Shown here one piece after another: positions 5,298-12,293 of a stretch of 12,293 bases of DNA. Positions within the stretch are counted from its first letter, which is position 1; every line of letters begins with the position of its first letter. Below the pieces are notes generated by a model. That model was given only the letters and a program-made list of their open reading frames with translations. It did no database searches and was not told the origin of the DNA. The stretch is from Bradymonadia bacterium (GTDB taxonomy: Bacteria > Myxococcota_A > Bradymonadia > UBA7976 > UBA1532): positions 99,764 to 112,056 of the forward strand of contig JBKAGE010000072.1 of NCBI GenBank assembly GCA_046290225.1, in the 5' to 3' direction. The translations under genes were made by a program, and so were the position numbers.

Positions 5298-5323
5298 AGC
5301 AGCCGTTAGAAGTCCGCTCTACC
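5293..5323 (+). other. 8-bp stem-loop overlapping the stop codon of the 4611-5297 gene
   Basis: GGTAGAGC (5293-5300) pairs with GCTCTACC (5316-5323) around a 15-nt loop, and the TAG stop at 5295-5297 lies inside the stem. No U-tract follows. It could be a stabilising 3' hairpin or an attenuator ahead of the NYN-CSD gene, which starts 91 nt downstream at 5414. Confidence 0.3.
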
Positions 5324-5413
5324 TGCGTCCAGCCTTTCACTGATCATCAGCAACATCCGATTGATTCAGTGTGATACAAGTCCGCGCTCACAACTCGAAA
5401 AGGAACCCTACCC

Positions 5414-6175
5414 ATGTTGAAAGCGGGTGTTTACGTCGACGCCGAGAACGTCGCACGCTGTGGGGGGTGGGGCATGCGTTTCGATATCTTGCGACAGTTC
5501 ATCGAGGCTCAAGGCGTACGGGTGCTCCGAGCCAATGTCTACCTCGCGGTGGATCAGGAGAGAGAAGAGAAGGACTGGCTCTACCGCGACAAGAAGCTGG
5601 CCTACCGGGCGGTCCTGAGGCGCCAGGGCTACAAAGTGGTCCCCAAATTCGTCAAACGCTACCGCAACGAAGAAGGCGAGCTGGTCACCAAGGCCAACGC
5701 AGATCTCGACCTCGCCGTCGACGCCCTGCTGCAAGCACAGCGCCTCGACTACATGATGCTGGTGAGCGGCGATGGCGACTTCGTACGGCTGGTGAACGCC
5801 CTGCAAAACTTCGGCTGTCGGGTGGACGCCCTCGGCTTCCACAACGTCTCCAGGGCCTTGCGCGACGCCGTGGACACCTACCACTCGGGCTTCTTCGTGC
5901 CCGAGCTGCTGCCCACCACGGATGATCGTCTGCGCGGCTTCATGCACAGCGTCGACGAAGAAAAATACTTCGGCTGGATCACCACCTGGGGCGACTTGAG
6001 CCCCGAGAGCGTGAGCACTGACATCTTCGTGCACGGAAACGACGTGGAGGGCGGCACCCTGAGCAATGGGCAGTTCGCCAACCTCAAGGTGCATCAGACG
6101 CCCATCGAGTTCACCCTCGACGTGAACGACGAGGGCCAGCCGCGGGCGGTGGACGTGAAGATTCTGCGGCCATGA
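5414..6175 (+). CDS. NYN-domain (LabA-like, PIN-fold RNase) protein with a C-terminal cold-shock/OB-fold-like domain
   Basis: ATG at 5414 with AAGGAA upstream. The N-terminal ~160 aa show the NYN/LabA signature: VYVDAENV near the N-terminus, then ADLDLAVDALLQA and MMLVSGDGDFVRLV, with conserved acidic residues of a PIN-like nuclease. The C-terminal ~70 aa (YFGWITTW..DIFVHGNDVEG..GQFANLKV..GQPRAVDVKIL) parallel the CspA pattern (KGFGFI..DVFVHFSAI..GQKVSF..GPAAGNVTSL). That pattern is an OB-fold nucleic-acid-binding domain. The long antisense ORF 5408-6337 is rejected. Confidence 0.78.
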   Translation: MLKAGVYVDAENVARCGGWGMRFDILRQFIEAQGVRVLRANVYLAVDQEREEKDWLYRDKKLAYRAVLRRQGYKVVPKFVKRYRNEEGELVTKANADLDLAVDALLQAQRLDYMMLVSGDGDFVRLVNALQNFGCRVDALGFHNVSRALRDAVDTYHSGFFVPELLPTTDDRLRGFMHSVDEEKYFGWITTWGDLSPESVSTDIFVHGNDVEGGTLSNGQFANLKVHQTPIEFTLDVNDEGQPRAVDVKILRP

Positions 6176-6177
6176 TG

Positions 6178-6328
6178 CTGTGAGCGGACGGCCGTGCCTT
6201 CGGCAACGCCTGTAGCGGACGACCCAGCAAAAGCTTTCGCTTCGCTGCGTCTGTAGCGGACGCCTCGCCTTCGGCGAGAGCTGTAGCGGACGCTCATTTG
6301 CCTCCGGCAAATTCCCTGTAGCTTTTTT
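6178..6328. repeat. Left arm of the hairpin-module repeat array: 5 copies of the CTGTAGCGGACG motif on the + strand
   Basis: Read directly from the sequence. Motif copies lie at 6178-6190 (CTGTGAGCGGACG), 6209-6221, 6251-6262, 6281-6292 and a truncated 6315-6322 (CTGTAGC) followed by T6 (6323-6328). Each inter-motif spacer holds its own short perfect hairpin: TGCC-TTC-GGCA (6195-6205), CAGC..GCTG around an AAAGCTTT palindrome (6225-6247), CTCGCC-TTC-GGCGAG (6264-6278), ATTTGCC-TCC-GGCAAAT (6296-6312). Confidence 0.85.
6296..6328 (+). terminator. Weak intrinsic-terminator-like element for the + strand NYN-CSD gene
   Basis: A 7-bp hairpin ATTTGCC(TCC)GGCAAAT at 6296-6312 is followed 10 nt later by TTTTTT (6323-6328). 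The hairpin-to-U-tract distance is longer than canonical, so this is weak. Confidence 0.3.
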
Positions 6329-6447
6329 GAAGATCACTTTGGGGGCGTGGGCTCATCTACCGCGAACGTTGTGACCCAATGACGCACCAGCTCCGGCGTA
6401 AGCCCCAACCTGGGCTGAGAAGCCCACCAAGTGCAGCATAACTCTCT

Positions 6448-6479
6448 AAAAAAGCTACAGCCCAGGCTGCCGGAGGCAG
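6448..6479 (-). terminator. Weak intrinsic-terminator-like element for the - strand flavoprotein/Fe-S membrane operon
   Basis: On the - strand a 5-bp hairpin CTGCC(TCC)GGCAG (6479-6467) is followed by ~13 nt and then TTTTTT (the complement of A6 at 6448-6453). It faces the + strand element across the 119-bp core. Confidence 0.3.
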
Positions 6480-6593
6480 ACTCGGCGTCCGCTACAGCTC
6501 TGCAAGGCGAAGCCGAAGCAGGCGTCCGCTACAGGCGGTGCGCAGCACGGCCGTCCGCTCCAGACGCAGCGAAGCTGGGTCGTCCGCTCAACA
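6448..6593. repeat. Right arm of the array: 5 copies of the same motif on the - strand, in mirror-image order
   Basis: The reverse-complement motif CGTCCGCTACAG lies at 6486-6497 and 6523-6534. Variants CGTCCGCTCCAG lie at 6552-6563 and CGTCCGCTCAACA at 6581-6593. The truncated copy A6-GCTACAG is at 6448-6460. Spacer hairpins read on the - strand are CTGCC-TCC-GGCAG (6467-6479), GGC-TTC-GCC / GC-TTCG-GC composite (6498-6521), GTGC-TGC-GCAC (6538-6548) and CAGC-TTC-GCTG (6567-6577). The outermost units of the two arms are near-identical (GAGCGGACGGCCGTGC, GAGCGGACGACCCAGC). Confidence 0.85.
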
Positions 6594-6595
6594 CC

Positions 6596-7972
6596 TCAGC
6601 TCTTGAGCGACTTGATGAGCTCCGACAGGGGGGCGTCGGCGCCGTCGAAACGATCGCTCACCTTACCGTTCTCCAGCTTGAGCACCCCTCGGGGGCACAC
6701 CGCAGCGCAAATGCCGCAGCCCACGCAGCTCGCCCGGACGATGTTCTCACCCTTCTGAGCGTATTTACGCACGTCGATGCCCATCTCGCAGTAGGTCGAG
6801 CAGTTACCACAGGAGATGCACTGCCCGCCGTTGGTGGTGATGCGGAACCGGCTGAAGAAGCGCTGACCCAGACCCAGAATCGCGGCCATCGGGCAGAAGA
6901 AGCGGCACCACACCCGGCTGCCCATCAGGGGGTAGAAGCCCACGCCGACGACGCCGGAAAGCATGGCGCCCACGAGGAAGCCGTAGGTCTTCGACGCCGC
7001 CTGGCTGAAGTCCCCAAGGACCTTGCCCTCAGTGTAACTGTTGATCCAGATCACCAGGGTGACCACGGTGATCGACACCAGCACTAGGTGAATCGCCCAG
7101 CGCTCGAAGCGCCACGCCTTGATGGACTTGTCGCTGAGATGCCGGAAGGGATCACCGGCGGTCTCGGCAAGACCACCGCAACCACACACCCACGAGCAGT
7201 ACCAGCGCTTACCGAAGTACCATGTGAGCAGTGGGGTCAGGATGAAGCTCGCGGCGATGCCCCAGAACACCATGAAGGTGCCCAGGCCACCAGGCTGCTC
7301 CATGAGCCACTTGATGTCGTTGGGGAACAAGTAGTTGTACTTCAGGGGCCAGAAGTAGGTGAAATAGAACTCGGGCTGACTCATCAGCTTCAGAAACTGC
7401 GGGATCAAGAACCCGAAGCCCAGCTGGAAGAACATCACCGAGAGCGTACGGAAGATTTGGTACTTGTTGTGGCGGTAGCGGAAGATCATCCGCACGCCCA
7501 TCAGCACCACCCCGAAGGTGTACAGGGTGCCATAGAGGAACCACTGATCAGCGCCCTTACCGTTGAGCAGCTTGCCCAGCGGCTCCACGAGGGCGATGGC
7601 CCCTGACAGCGAGCTGCCGTGCCAGTAGAGCATCACGTACAGCGTGGTGATGACTACCCCGAGGATGATGCCCACCGTACCGCGGGACTTGGTGCCGTCG
7701 GTCATGGTGCCGTTGTTCTTGATGCCCGGTACCGTTCCGCTGTAGGTGGCGACGATGTGACCGATGGTGCCCACAGTGATGGGCCCGAAGACCGAGAAGA
7801 AACCCACCCAGCCACCGAGACGCCAGCCAAAGAGAGCGGCGGCAAAGAGGGCGGCGCTCAGCAGAATCAGGCCGGTGCTGATTTTGCGGAGCTGTTGCAT
7901 TTGAGCGCTCACCTCGTGGGTGGCACCGTGACCGTCGACGAGAGAGATGCTTGCGTTGATCGGGTTGCTCAT
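6596..7972 (-). CDS. Polytopic membrane iron-sulfur protein of the NapH/MauN/NosR/CcoG (FixG) type, with a C-terminal 2x[4Fe-4S] ferredoxin domain
   Basis: The true start is ATG at 7972-7970 (MSNPINAS...). The ORF track's 95-aa N-terminal extension overlaps the upstream gene and is rejected. There are about 9-10 hydrophobic helices. Two CxxxCP-type membrane-proximal motifs, KRWYCSWVCGCGG and RVWCRFFCPMAAILG, match the R-x-(F/W)-C-R-x-x-C-P-x-G signature of NapH/MauN-family proteins. The C-terminus carries CISCGNCSTYCE and CVGCGICAAVCP (CxxCxxCxxxC[P/E]). The stop (TGA) is on the + strand as TCA at 6596-6598. The start overlaps the upstream flavoprotein stop as ATGA, which suggests translational coupling. 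Confidence 0.8.
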   Translation of the reverse strand: MSNPINASISLVDGHGATHEVSAQMQQLRKISTGLILLSAALFAAALFGWRLGGWVGFFSVFGPITVGTIGHIVATYSGTVPGIKNNGTMTDGTKSRGTVGIILGVVITTLYVMLYWHGSSLSGAIALVEPLGKLLNGKGADQWFLYGTLYTFGVVLMGVRMIFRYRHNKYQIFRTLSVMFFQLGFGFLIPQFLKLMSQPEFYFTYFWPLKYNYLFPNDIKWLMEQPGGLGTFMVFWGIAASFILTPLLTWYFGKRWYCSWVCGCGGLAETAGDPFRHLSDKSIKAWRFERWAIHLVLVSITVVTLVIWINSYTEGKVLGDFSQAASKTYGFLVGAMLSGVVGVGFYPLMGSRVWCRFFCPMAAILGLGQRFFSRFRITTNGGQCISCGNCSTYCEMGIDVRKYAQKGENIVRASCVGCGICAAVCPRGVLKLENGKVSDRFDGADAPLSELIKSLKS

Positions 7973-9252
7973 CGGACCTGCTCCATGAACGTGCCTACGA
8001 TGTTGCGCTCGTGCTTCCGGTAGAACTCGGGATCGAAGTTCGCATCCCGCATGTGGGCGAAGACGTACTCCGCATCTCTCTCCTCGGCGATCCACCGCTC
8101 GCAGACCCGGTGTCGATACCGGATGCCCATGGCGTTCACACCCTTGATGATCCCGTCTTGGAAGACCAGACGCATCGAATGCCGACGACTGGGGTGCTCC
8201 CAATACAGGTTCTTCTCGCGCTCGAGGTCCCGCTTCACCTGACCGTAGGTGTGCCACTCGAGATCGAGGAACTTGGCAGAGTTGAACCAGATGCCCTGCT
8301 CATAGGTGCGATCGATGCCGCTGATGACGTCGCCGGCCACCTGCCCCTGAGCCTTGCCGGTGTACCAGACCTGCTCGATGGTGTTCCGGGCGTCTCCGGG
8401 GTTCACCAGCTCGGCGCAGTCGCCCACGGCGTAGACCCCTTCGACCTGCGTCTGGAGCTTCCAGTCCACCAGGATCCCACGACCGGTGGGGATGCCTGAG
8501 CCTTCGAGTGCGGACAGGTTGGGCCGTACACCCGCGGTGAGGCCCACGAACTCGCAGTCGATGCGCTCGCCGTCTTTGGTCATCACGCCGCAGACGCGCC
8601 CATGGCCATCATCCAGGATCTCGGCGAGCTCGGTCTCGAGACGCAGATCGATGTGCTGCTCGTAGATGTGGTGGTTCACCAGGGCCGACTCTTCGGCGGG
8701 GAGCACGTTGCTCCAGTACGACTTCTCACGGGCGAGGATGCTCACGTGCTTGCCGCGTGCATGGAGCATCTCGGCGAGCTCGATGCCGATGAGGCCCCCA
8801 CCGACGATGACCCCGCGCTTGATGCGATGGCTGTTGGCCTCGAGGCTGTAGAGATCCTGCAGGCTGTACATGCCGTGCACGCCTTCGAGATCCTGACCGG
8901 GCCAGCCGAACTTGTTGGGCTGGCTGCCCACGGCGAGCACCAGCTTGTCGTAGGCGATCGAGGTGCGGGTGTCGTTGACGCTGTTGAGCGTCAGCCGGCG
9001 GTTCTCGGTGTCGATGTGGGTGACCCAGCCCTGCACCCGCTCGATGCGGTTGAGATCCCATACATGGTTCTCGTACGGGCGGGTCTGGGCCTCGGTCATG
9101 TGCCCCATGTAGATGTACATGAGGGCTGGTCGCGAGAAGAAGTACTCCGACTCTCCGGAGATCAGCGAGATGCGCCAGTCAGGATGGTTTTTGCGTATGC
9201 GAAACGCTGTGGTCACCCCTGAGATGCCGTTGCCGATGATCGCGATGTGCAT
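7969..9252 (-). CDS. FAD/NAD(P)H-dependent oxidoreductase of the two-dinucleotide-binding-domain fold (ferredoxin-reductase / pyridine nucleotide-disulfide oxidoreductase family)
   Basis: Start chosen at the second Met (ATG 9252-9250; MHIAIIGNGISGV = FAD GxGxxG) because AAGGAAGGGAG lies 4-8 nt upstream. The track ORF begins 11 codons earlier at 9285. The NAD(P) Rossmann motif KRGVIVGGGLIGIELAE and the second FAD motif GVYAVGDCA are present. No redox-active CxxxxC or single active-site Cys appears near the N-terminus, which makes a ferredoxin/rubredoxin-reductase-like enzyme more likely than a disulfide reductase. The stop TGA is TCA at 7969-7971 on the + strand. Confidence 0.85.
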   Translation of the reverse strand: MHIAIIGNGISGVTTAFRIRKNHPDWRISLISGESEYFFSRPALMYIYMGHMTEAQTRPYENHVWDLNRIERVQGWVTHIDTENRRLTLNSVNDTRTSIAYDKLVLAVGSQPNKFGWPGQDLEGVHGMYSLQDLYSLEANSHRIKRGVIVGGGLIGIELAEMLHARGKHVSILAREKSYWSNVLPAEESALVNHHIYEQHIDLRLETELAEILDDGHGRVCGVMTKDGERIDCEFVGLTAGVRPNLSALEGSGIPTGRGILVDWKLQTQVEGVYAVGDCAELVNPGDARNTIEQVWYTGKAQGQVAGDVISGIDRTYEQGIWFNSAKFLDLEWHTYGQVKRDLEREKNLYWEHPSRRHSMRLVFQDGIIKGVNAMGIRYRHRVCERWIAEERDAEYVFAHMRDANFDPEFYRKHERNIVGTFMEQVR

Positions 9253-11567: not shown

Positions 11568-11666
11568 GGGGGCTCGCTGGGCGGGGGTCGGAGGTGATGG
11601 ATGGGGTTGTTTTAGCGTGGGTGGGGGTGGTTGTGGAGGGTTCGCTCCGCGGGTGAGAGAGTTTTC

Positions 11667-11696
11667 GGGCACGGGCACGGGCACGGGCACGGGCAC
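11667..11696. repeat. (GGGCAC)5 perfect hexanucleotide tandem repeat, about 100 bp upstream of the mvaD start
   Basis: Read directly from the sequence: gggcac x5 at 11667-11696. It is preceded by a G-run-rich tract at 11581-11645 (GGGGG, GGG, GGGGG, GGG... on the + strand, so C-rich in the mvaD leader). Confidence 0.9.
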
Positions 11697-11936
11697 GAGT
11701 CGAATATCCCTGGGCTTTTTTGATGGATGGGCTGCTCGCCGAGCGTGGGGGGCGGCGTGTTGGCTTTTGGAGGTGGGCGCCAGGTTACGGGAACGTCACA
11801 CCCCACCCATTGTGGAACACCTGCACCAAACCGCTCCACAATGAAACGCAACGCAGAATGGGTCACAGGGTTAATGTGTGAGAAACGCTTAAAATCACCG
11901 TCTGGCACACAGCATGCATTTAAGTATGTGCGAATG

Positions 11937-11984: not shown

Positions 11985-12293
11985 CCGGCGCTCCGCGGGG
12001 CACGTGCATATGTGGGTTATGGCTTTGTTGGGTTGGTGGGTTGGGGCTTTTTCACTCCATTCAGTGATGACTCTATAGATGATGAATTTGCCATACTTTT
12101 GGTGAGCAGCCCCTCTTGCGTGGGCTGATACACAGTGGATGTCCCTTCTCCTGTCACCTTGTAAGTCGGAGAAGTGTTGTGCATCCGCCCTGGTAGGGTA
12201 GGCGGGTCGCGGCGTAGTACCGCGTTGCCCGCCCCCCATCGCACCGGACGTGCGGATCTCCCGCATCCGGCGCTCCTGCATCAGTCGCCATCG

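Follow-up and report, generated by a model that had tools for sequence, protein, structure and literature searches.

We have analysed a 12,293-nt stretch of DNA from a Bradymonadia bacterium (contig JBKAGE010000072.1), referred to below as the window, in which a gene encoding a fusion of a LabA-like NYN domain and a cold-shock domain (CSD) lies in a mevalonate-pathway cluster and is followed directly by short hairpins. On balance we think it probable that these hairpins form a palindromic cluster resembling repetitive extragenic palindromes (REPs) and bacterial interspersed mosaic elements (BIMEs), that the cluster provides structured 3′ ends to the transcripts of both of the convergent genes between which it is situated, and that it lies beside a genuine, uncharacterised NYN-CSD nuclease gene. 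On this reading, the juxtaposition of the nuclease gene and the hairpins is positional, and is not a dedicated pairing of an enzyme with its substrate.

The organization of the spacer between the two genes provides one line of evidence. The NYN-CSD gene (5414–6175, + strand; 253 codons, with NYN at about residues 3–158 and the cold-shock or oligonucleotide-binding (OB) domain at about residues 173–250) converges with a gene for a 458-residue NapH/MauN-like 4Fe-4S polyferredoxin (6596–7972, − strand), and the two are separated by 420 nt (6176–6595). Both genes end with a TGA stop followed by 5 nt and then TGAGCGGACG, with the same spacing and sequence on each side. The 12-mer CTGTAGCGGACG, or a variant differing at one position, occurs three times on the + strand (6210, 6251 and 6281) and three times on the − strand (6486, 6523 and 6552), and when up to two mismatches are permitted there are eight matches in the window compared with 1.4 expected by chance. 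From the copies and their orientation on the two strands it follows that the spacer consists of two inverted sets of four units, each set being sense to the gene upstream of it. In each unit CTGTAGCGGACG is joined to a variable hairpin, in most cases one with a C-TNC-G triloop; the eight units are 26–38 nt long, and their palindromic parts are imperfect and span 17–29 nt. The tag is GTAG in five of the units, TGAG in two and GGAG in the remaining one.

The left set (6179–6328, + strand) has motif copies at 6179–6190, where the outermost copy is the variant TGTGAGCGGACG, and at 6210–6221, 6251–6262 and 6281–6292 (CTGTAGCGGACG), with spacer hairpins that we designate types A, B, C and D in that order. 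It closes with a truncated inner copy, CTGTAGC (6316–6322), and a run of six T residues directly after it (6323–6328). The right set (6448–6593, − strand) has its outermost copy at 6581–6593 (TGTTGAGCGGACG, the reverse complement of the top strand at these positions), followed by copies at 6552–6563 (CTGGAGCGGACG), 6523–6534 and 6486–6497, and it too ends with a truncated CTGTAGC (6454–6460) and a T6 run (6448–6453). The same four hairpin types are present in both sets, with A and B in swapped order in the right set (B, A, C, D). Between the two facing T-runs is a non-repeated central spacer of about 119 nt (6329–6447), which constitutes the apical part of a long hairpin described below. Units are arranged head-to-tail inside each set and orientation is inverted only between the sets, the longest exact match between which is 17 nt. 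The spacer has no Rfam match in a search of the whole window in E-value mode.

This arrangement departs from the original prediction, which described an array of nine hairpins beginning 3 nt past the NYN-CSD stop and, unless a weak internal terminator-like element acts, transcribed with the gene as its 3′ untranslated region (UTR). The repeats do start right after the stop, but they do not make up one co-oriented array in that 3′ UTR. They comprise eight units divided between two inverted sets; only four precede the first T6 run, and the second set stands in the same relation to the stop of the convergent 4Fe-4S gene, which it abuts. A CRISPR array was also considered and rejected, as the repeat is only 12 nt long where identical CRISPR repeats have 24–48 nt, the apparent spacers are not unique but are homologous hairpins common to both sets, and there are no cas genes in the window.

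Each of the inter-motif spacers forms a hairpin, and seven of the eight have the C-TNC-G triloop (TTC, TCC or TGC). The YNC triloops predicted earlier are thus present in all but unit +2, which corresponds to unit −1 with a 12-nt insertion that lengthens the stem and generates a TTTC tetraloop. Perfect stems are 3–7 bp with extensions, and perfect triloop stems total 36 bp compared with 16.7 ± 2.5 in 20,000 shuffles of the spacers. Comparison of homologous units reveals compensated changes in the stems (CTCGCC/GGCGAG versus CTGC/GCAG; TTTGCC/GGCAAA versus CTGCC/GGCAG; and TGCC/GGCA versus GTGC/GCAC). It is the upper stem that varies, the closing pair (C-G) and the base (CGG...CTG) being constant. 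The hairpin potential of the spacers far exceeds chance, but neither set, folded by itself, does better than shuffled sequence (z = −0.79 and 0.05). The entire spacer, by comparison, folds as one long hairpin (−237.6 kcal/mol; z = −11.9), and at the DNA level the two sets form a foldback of about 410 bp.

The last unit in each set is closed by pairing of AGCUGUAG with CUGUAGCU, including two G-U pairs, and the U-run follows directly; this combination of hairpin and U-run looks like a terminator at the end of each set, and one of the two ends (6470–6457, − strand) is called by terminator prediction. The most likely scheme is that each set, being sense to its upstream gene, would be transcribed as part of the 3′ UTR, with this occurring in both mRNAs, and that the sets would act there as 3′-end structures, contributing both to termination and to protection against 3′–5′ exonucleases.

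Comparison with homologous loci provides further insights into the relationship between the hairpins and the two genes. Genomic contexts were recovered for six NYN-CSD homologues (P0002, P0003, P0004, P0005, P0014 and P0015), one of which (P0003, 62% identity) was left out of the comparison as its contig ends 7 nt past the stop. In a sister species the NYN-CSD orthologue (P0002, 85% identity) ends with a TAG stop followed by GCAG-GCGGACAG-GTCGCCC-TTC-GGGCGAC, after which the contig ends. The 4Fe-4S orthologue (P0122, 80% identity) is present on two contigs, and in these TAG-GCGGACAG-GTCGCCC-TTC-GGGCGAC is situated right at the stop, again followed by the contig end. An identical 27-nt unit is thus located 3′ of both genes, 0–4 nt from their TAG stops, from which we conclude that the same symmetric arrangement is present in the sister species. 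Relative to the window units, the sister unit retains GCGGAC and the TTC loop and has a different stem. None of the four more distant homologues, P0004 (59% identity), P0005 (59%), P0014 (57%) and P0015 (55%), has an array downstream, and the next gene in these loci lies anywhere from overlapping to 25 nt downstream. Among the homologue contexts examined, co-occurrence of an array with NYN-CSD is therefore seen only at the orthologous locus of the sister species. In a more distant relative, at a locus with the same mevalonate cluster (L036; 4Fe-4S protein 66% identical) the 4Fe-4S gene abuts another gene, and neither the NYN gene nor the arrays are present. Across 285 kb of loci, a unit of GCGGAC and a TNC-triloop hairpin is confined to the window, the Logan twin of the window and the contigs of the sister species, apart from one chance match.

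The units resemble the GTAG family of REPs. These are palindromes of 20–40 bp with stems of 6–13 bp, loops of 2–3 nt and an unpaired GTAG tag, in which G-T pairs occur and complementary stem residues have alternatives from copy to copy; they are located mainly between convergent or co-directional open reading frames (ORFs), with those between convergent ORFs lying less than 20 bp from both ORF ends, and the GTAG terminus often provides a TAG stop (Di Nocera et al. 2013, PMC3733652). Dimers and clusters are known, with tandem head-to-tail arrangements being the rarer kind (PMC3733652). The window units are likewise imperfect palindromes with short loops that fall within the 20–40 nt class, carry an unpaired tag at one end of the GTAG (or GTRG/GYRG) type, and are extragenic and situated close to the 3′ ends of ORFs, in this instance 5 nt from both stops. 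They are also G+C-rich, have G-T pairs in the stem base and a tag that supplies or abuts the stop, and, in common with clusters of GTAG REPs, can fold into larger structures. Of the REP features that can be read from sequence, all are present except for alternating orientation within the cluster, and the combination of GTAG tag, conserved stem base and compensated variable upper stems is the design expected of a REP family. The cluster differs from GTAG REPs in having four hairpin types in a fixed series, a conserved core (the 12-mer) that spans the junction of one hairpin with the next, and a T-run closing each half. We find no gene for a REP-associated tyrosine transposase (RAYT; a Y1 transposase) in the 12,293-nt window. 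The REPs associated with RAYTs are reportedly treated in work by Nunvar in 2010 and Ton-Hoang in 2012.

REP sequences are defined by a high copy number at dispersed sites, and we therefore looked for further units. A fuzzy motif search finds none above chance within about 17 kb around the locus. The 116 nt of spacer upstream of the NYN gene include two motif-like strings (5310–5322 and 5378–5392), both reversed in orientation, and their reverse complements (GTAGAGCGGAC and TGTGAGCGCGGAC) each differ from the array motif by an insertion of 1–2 nt; neither is significant in the fuzzy search. Scanning of genome and metagenome contig collections for the exact pattern CTGTAGCGGACG-N(12–40)-CTGTAGCGGACG returned 7 and 12 loci respectively, mostly tandem repeats within coding sequence or gene 3′ ends duplicated in tandem, and no clearly homologous array in these collections, of which the genome set does not include the source genome. 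The only non-coding arrays following a stop were those of Haliangium (L004) and Lamprocystis (L006), the latter being REP-like. The former, in a Haliangium sp. metagenome-assembled genome (7087–7671), has 14 copies of a 42-nt unit starting 27 nt past a stop, with the consensus TCCTGTAGCGGCGACTTCGGCCGGGGGCCGGGACAGGACGCG; a CCTGTAGCGG motif is present, each unit has two G+C hairpins, and the array may represent a related repeat class in Myxococcota. Two metagenome contigs of 76–77% G+C (L018 and L022) also contain CTGTAGCGGACG in arrays after a stop, although these are tandem duplications of the last codons, a CTG-TAG stop and the downstream sequence, and the phenomenon is apparently not that seen in the window array.

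Assembly behaviour offers a more indirect view of copy number. Four short-read contigs extend into the array, and every one of them ends inside it, 17–61 nt past the stop. If Logan contigs are built with k = 31, a 17-nt match would be too short to break the graph; that one of these contigs (L008) nevertheless breaks where the longest local exact repeat is 17 nt suggests that there are copies elsewhere or that the region is polymorphic. Together with the recurrence of an identical 27-nt unit at a second site in the sister species, these breaks hint at multiplicity.

Several observations do not sit easily with assignment to the REP/BIME class. The absence of further units near the locus and of homologous arrays in the scans described above is one, and, as dispersed copy number is the defining property of REPs, the class assignment here depends on this locus and its sister orthologue. 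Another is that the units are head-to-tail inside each half, where a BIME would have alternating orientation, and that this arrangement is the rarer one among REPs. The best-conserved part of the array is the 12-mer between the hairpins and not the stems. Sense and antisense folding energies show no asymmetry, and so give no indication of a function at the RNA level; as the two strands fold about equally, however, these energies do not distinguish RNA function from DNA function. Finally, the NYN gene is accompanied by the arrays in both of the close species, and gene and arrays alike are missing from L036; in the three related lineages compared they are gained or lost together, and the phylogenetic pattern taken alone is compatible with a link between them.

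Another possibility, which we regard as unlikely though deserving of consideration, is that a hairpin-rich 3′ region underwent local inverted duplication, giving rise to a locus-specific bidirectional terminator and 3′-UTR stabilizer that does not belong to a dispersed family. The failure to find other copies, both within 17 kb and in the public collections, is what would be expected of such a structure, as are the hairpin and T6 run that close both sets and the retention of the structure at the orthologous position in the sister species. Bidirectional intrinsic terminators likewise have G+C-rich hairpins and T-runs on both strands of a convergent spacer, although in the window the T-runs are about 120 nt apart and each is preceded by four extra repeat-hairpin units. 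A purely local origin does not readily account for the contig that breaks inside the array where no local exact repeat exceeds 17 nt, for the identical 27-nt units at two sister-species sites, or for the REP-family design of tag, stem base and compensated upper stems. More doubtful is a non-autonomous foldback element, similar to a miniature inverted-repeat transposable element, inserted between the convergent genes, in which long terminal inverted repeats would contain the 12-mers as four direct 12-bp transposase-binding sites at each end, as in Mu, Tn7 and Tn402-type elements. The sites are indeed direct within ends and inverted between them, the termini are of the TG...CA type (TGTGAGCGG... 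and ...CCGCTCAACA), the whole element is a strong foldback and assemblies break there. In contrast, there is no target-site duplication, the flanks being GATGC/CCTCA or TGCTG/ACACC, the spacers between sites are conserved hairpins that an array of transposase sites does not need, the structure occupies the same position in the sister species with diverged sequence, and the window contains no transposase gene. The terminal TGTGAGCGGAC resembles what we take to be the terminus of Tn7, TGTGGGCGGAC, a comparison that was dropped in view of the missing target duplication.

Very little weight can be given to the proposal, central to the original prediction, that NYN-CSD acts as a nuclease on the neighbouring hairpin units, binding or cleaving them either to autoregulate its own mRNA via the 3′ UTR or to release small structured RNAs. 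It is true that the active site and the RNA-binding motifs of the CSD are intact, that the array begins 5 nt past the stop, and that gene and arrays occur together in two related species and are both missing at the syntenic L036. However, the proposal has adjacency as its basis, and it is weakened by failing the comparison of gene neighbourhoods that the original prediction itself put forward: all four of the more distant homologue loci lack arrays, and an equivalent array lies 3′ of the unrelated convergent gene in the window and in the sister species. The protein family is, moreover, widespread with varied neighbours, and the arrays fit a generic class of repeats. The supporting analogy was to Regnase-1 (ZC3H12A), a eukaryotic protein of the PF11977 family with a CCCH zinc finger, which recognizes 3′-UTR stem-loops (with Roquin) that have pyrimidine-purine-pyrimidine loops. 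Both pictures involve a PIN-like nuclease and short triloop stem-loops in 3′ UTRs, although the analogy draws on another PIN-like family and amounts to a resemblance: the Pfam match of the window protein is PF01936, not PF11977, placing it outside the Zc3h12a group, and the window loops are mostly three pyrimidines. The fuller version, to which we assign slightly less credence still, is that NYN-CSD entered the mevalonate cluster of this Bradymonadia lineage along with the arrays and acts on them, the CSD binding the AGCGG linkers in their single-stranded state and the NYN domain cutting at or next to the C-TNC-G hairpins. If true, NYN-CSD would set the 3′ ends and half-lives of both convergent mRNAs, including its own, or release hairpin-sized small RNAs, and the hairpins would be the first substrate assigned to any LabA-type NYN protein.

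The protein is well defined irrespective of the role of the hairpins. Pfam profile PF01936 (NYN) matches residues 3–158 over almost its entire length (profile positions 1–143 of 145; E = 2.1e-26; 93.6 bits relative to a cut-off of 24.2), whereas the match of the single sequence to PF00313 (CSD) is weak (residues 175–249; E = 0.01; 16.1 bits, below the cut-off of 27). PF00313 is annotated in many homologues. In the PDB, a profile of the family matches 2qip, a LabA-like structure, at E = 6e-11, and several cold-shock proteins at E = 1e-4 to 1e-2. The AlphaFold model has a pLDDT of 92.9 and a pTM of 0.86, and in Foldseek comparisons its NYN part has a PIN-like alpha/beta fold matching 2qip (E = 1.1e-9; TM-score 0.76 normalized to the target). 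The C-terminal domain is modelled as a five-stranded OB fold (strands 173–181, 186–192, 200–207, 231–237 and 243–250) that superposes on CRHSP-24 (TM-score 0.60) and on the CSD of Unr. Because the Pfam, profile and structural evidence agree, the earlier description of the protein as a 253-residue fusion of NYN/LabA and cold-shock-like OB domains is right, even though a profile search of the single sequence recovers the NYN domain and leaves the CSD below threshold.

The acidic motifs quoted in the original prediction are also present. In an alignment of 41 sequences including the window protein, D9, N12, D97, D103, D120, D122 and D138 are invariant, and hence the domain is not degenerate; sequence, profiles and model support the predicted combination of a PIN-like acidic site and an OB fold. 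In the CSD, the aromatic RNP1- and RNP2-like motifs are KYFGWI and IFVH in the window protein, corresponding to KGFGFL and FCH in the consensus of the 41 members, and G187, F205 and H207 are conserved. No NCBIfam model matches the protein, and PADLOC gives only a weak, partial NYN match, with no sign of a defence system. As judged from profiles and model, the ORF product is a LabA-type NYN nuclease domain with an intact acidic site joined to a cold-shock OB domain, the NYN part being a predicted PIN-like metal-dependent nuclease. NYN-OST-HTH proteins offer an analogy for the OB domain, which by this comparison probably presents RNA in single-stranded form to the nuclease domain.

The family to which this protein belongs is large. 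A database search returns 289 homologues at E ≤ 1e-5, mostly of 250–300 residues and about 50% identical over their full length, from hosts that span many phyla (Bradymonadia, Calditrichaeota, Caldilineaceae, Longimicrobiales and Polarisedimenticolia among them), and many are annotated as PF00313 plus PF01936 or as "LabA/DUF88 family protein/cold shock CspA family protein". The exact window protein is itself recorded from a Bradymonadia metagenome-assembled genome. When 1.84 billion cluster representatives (a 50%-identity library) are searched exhaustively, 1644 relatives have E ≤ 1e-3, and 90 reach E ≤ 1e-30. Members of the family are about 260 residues long. The architecture is thus already widely annotated, and the family is widespread and experimentally uncharacterized. 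The window protein has the fold, acidic residues and Pfam family of the LabA-like NYN proteins (NYN.COG1432, PF01936, 2qip), among which the NYN-CSD subfamily is not known to have a studied member. According to a survey of the PIN superfamily, no member of the NYN.COG1432 group has been assayed for nuclease activity, and NYN-OST-HTH fusions are predicted to constitute stand-alone systems for RNA degradation (Matelska et al. 2017, PMC5499597). In both NYN-OST-HTH and NYN-CSD proteins a nuclease is fused to an RNA-binding domain, although the partner is OST-HTH in one and a cold-shock OB fold in the other.

Some homologue loci have features of their own. In two of them (L028, 3472–5864; L029, 3434–5801) the NYN-CSD homologue is one gene removed from IspD, of the methylerythritol phosphate pathway to isoprenoids, and has an M23 peptidase gene as its immediate downstream neighbour; the repeated nearness to isoprenoid genes, with a mevalonate cluster in the window and IspD in these loci, may be coincidence. 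The P0004 locus (L009, 395–9660) looks like a mobile element, with Replic_Relax, helix-turn-helix, DUF932 and PD-(D/E)XK proteins, and the family may sometimes be carried on mobile DNA.

Elsewhere in the window, the NapH-like polyferredoxin gene and a gene for an FAD/NAD(P) pyridine-nucleotide-disulfide oxidoreductase (6596–9252, − strand) have overlapping start and stop codons, as do their counterparts in L036 (8727–11368); the presence of the two inside the mevalonate cluster, both in the window and in the 66%-identity relative, marks them as a conserved redox pair. A perfect hexanucleotide microsatellite, (CGGGCA) × 5.3, lies at 11666–11697, just upstream of the diphosphomevalonate decarboxylase gene, and reads as (PV)n in the longest ORF. 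The sole Rfam match in the window is a group II intron (RF00029, domain V/VI) at its right edge (12193–12275, − strand), which at 49.1 bits (E = 2.5e-7) exceeds the gathering score; the remainder of the intron, with any gene for an intron-encoded protein, would fall outside the window.

Returning to the palindromic cluster that we favour, the picture of a nuclease accompanied by its substrate arose because a repeat cluster that is symmetric was read from one side only. NYN-CSD fusions make up a widespread, well-conserved family of predicted RNases with an intact active site. The Bradymonadia, for their part, seem to have a REP-like element that is unusual in its build: the units are head-to-tail, the 12-mer at their junction is conserved, and the variable stems are compensated. 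If this element is dispersed, it would extend GTAG-type REPs to the Bradymonadia and could be of use both for typing and for studies of 3′-end control.

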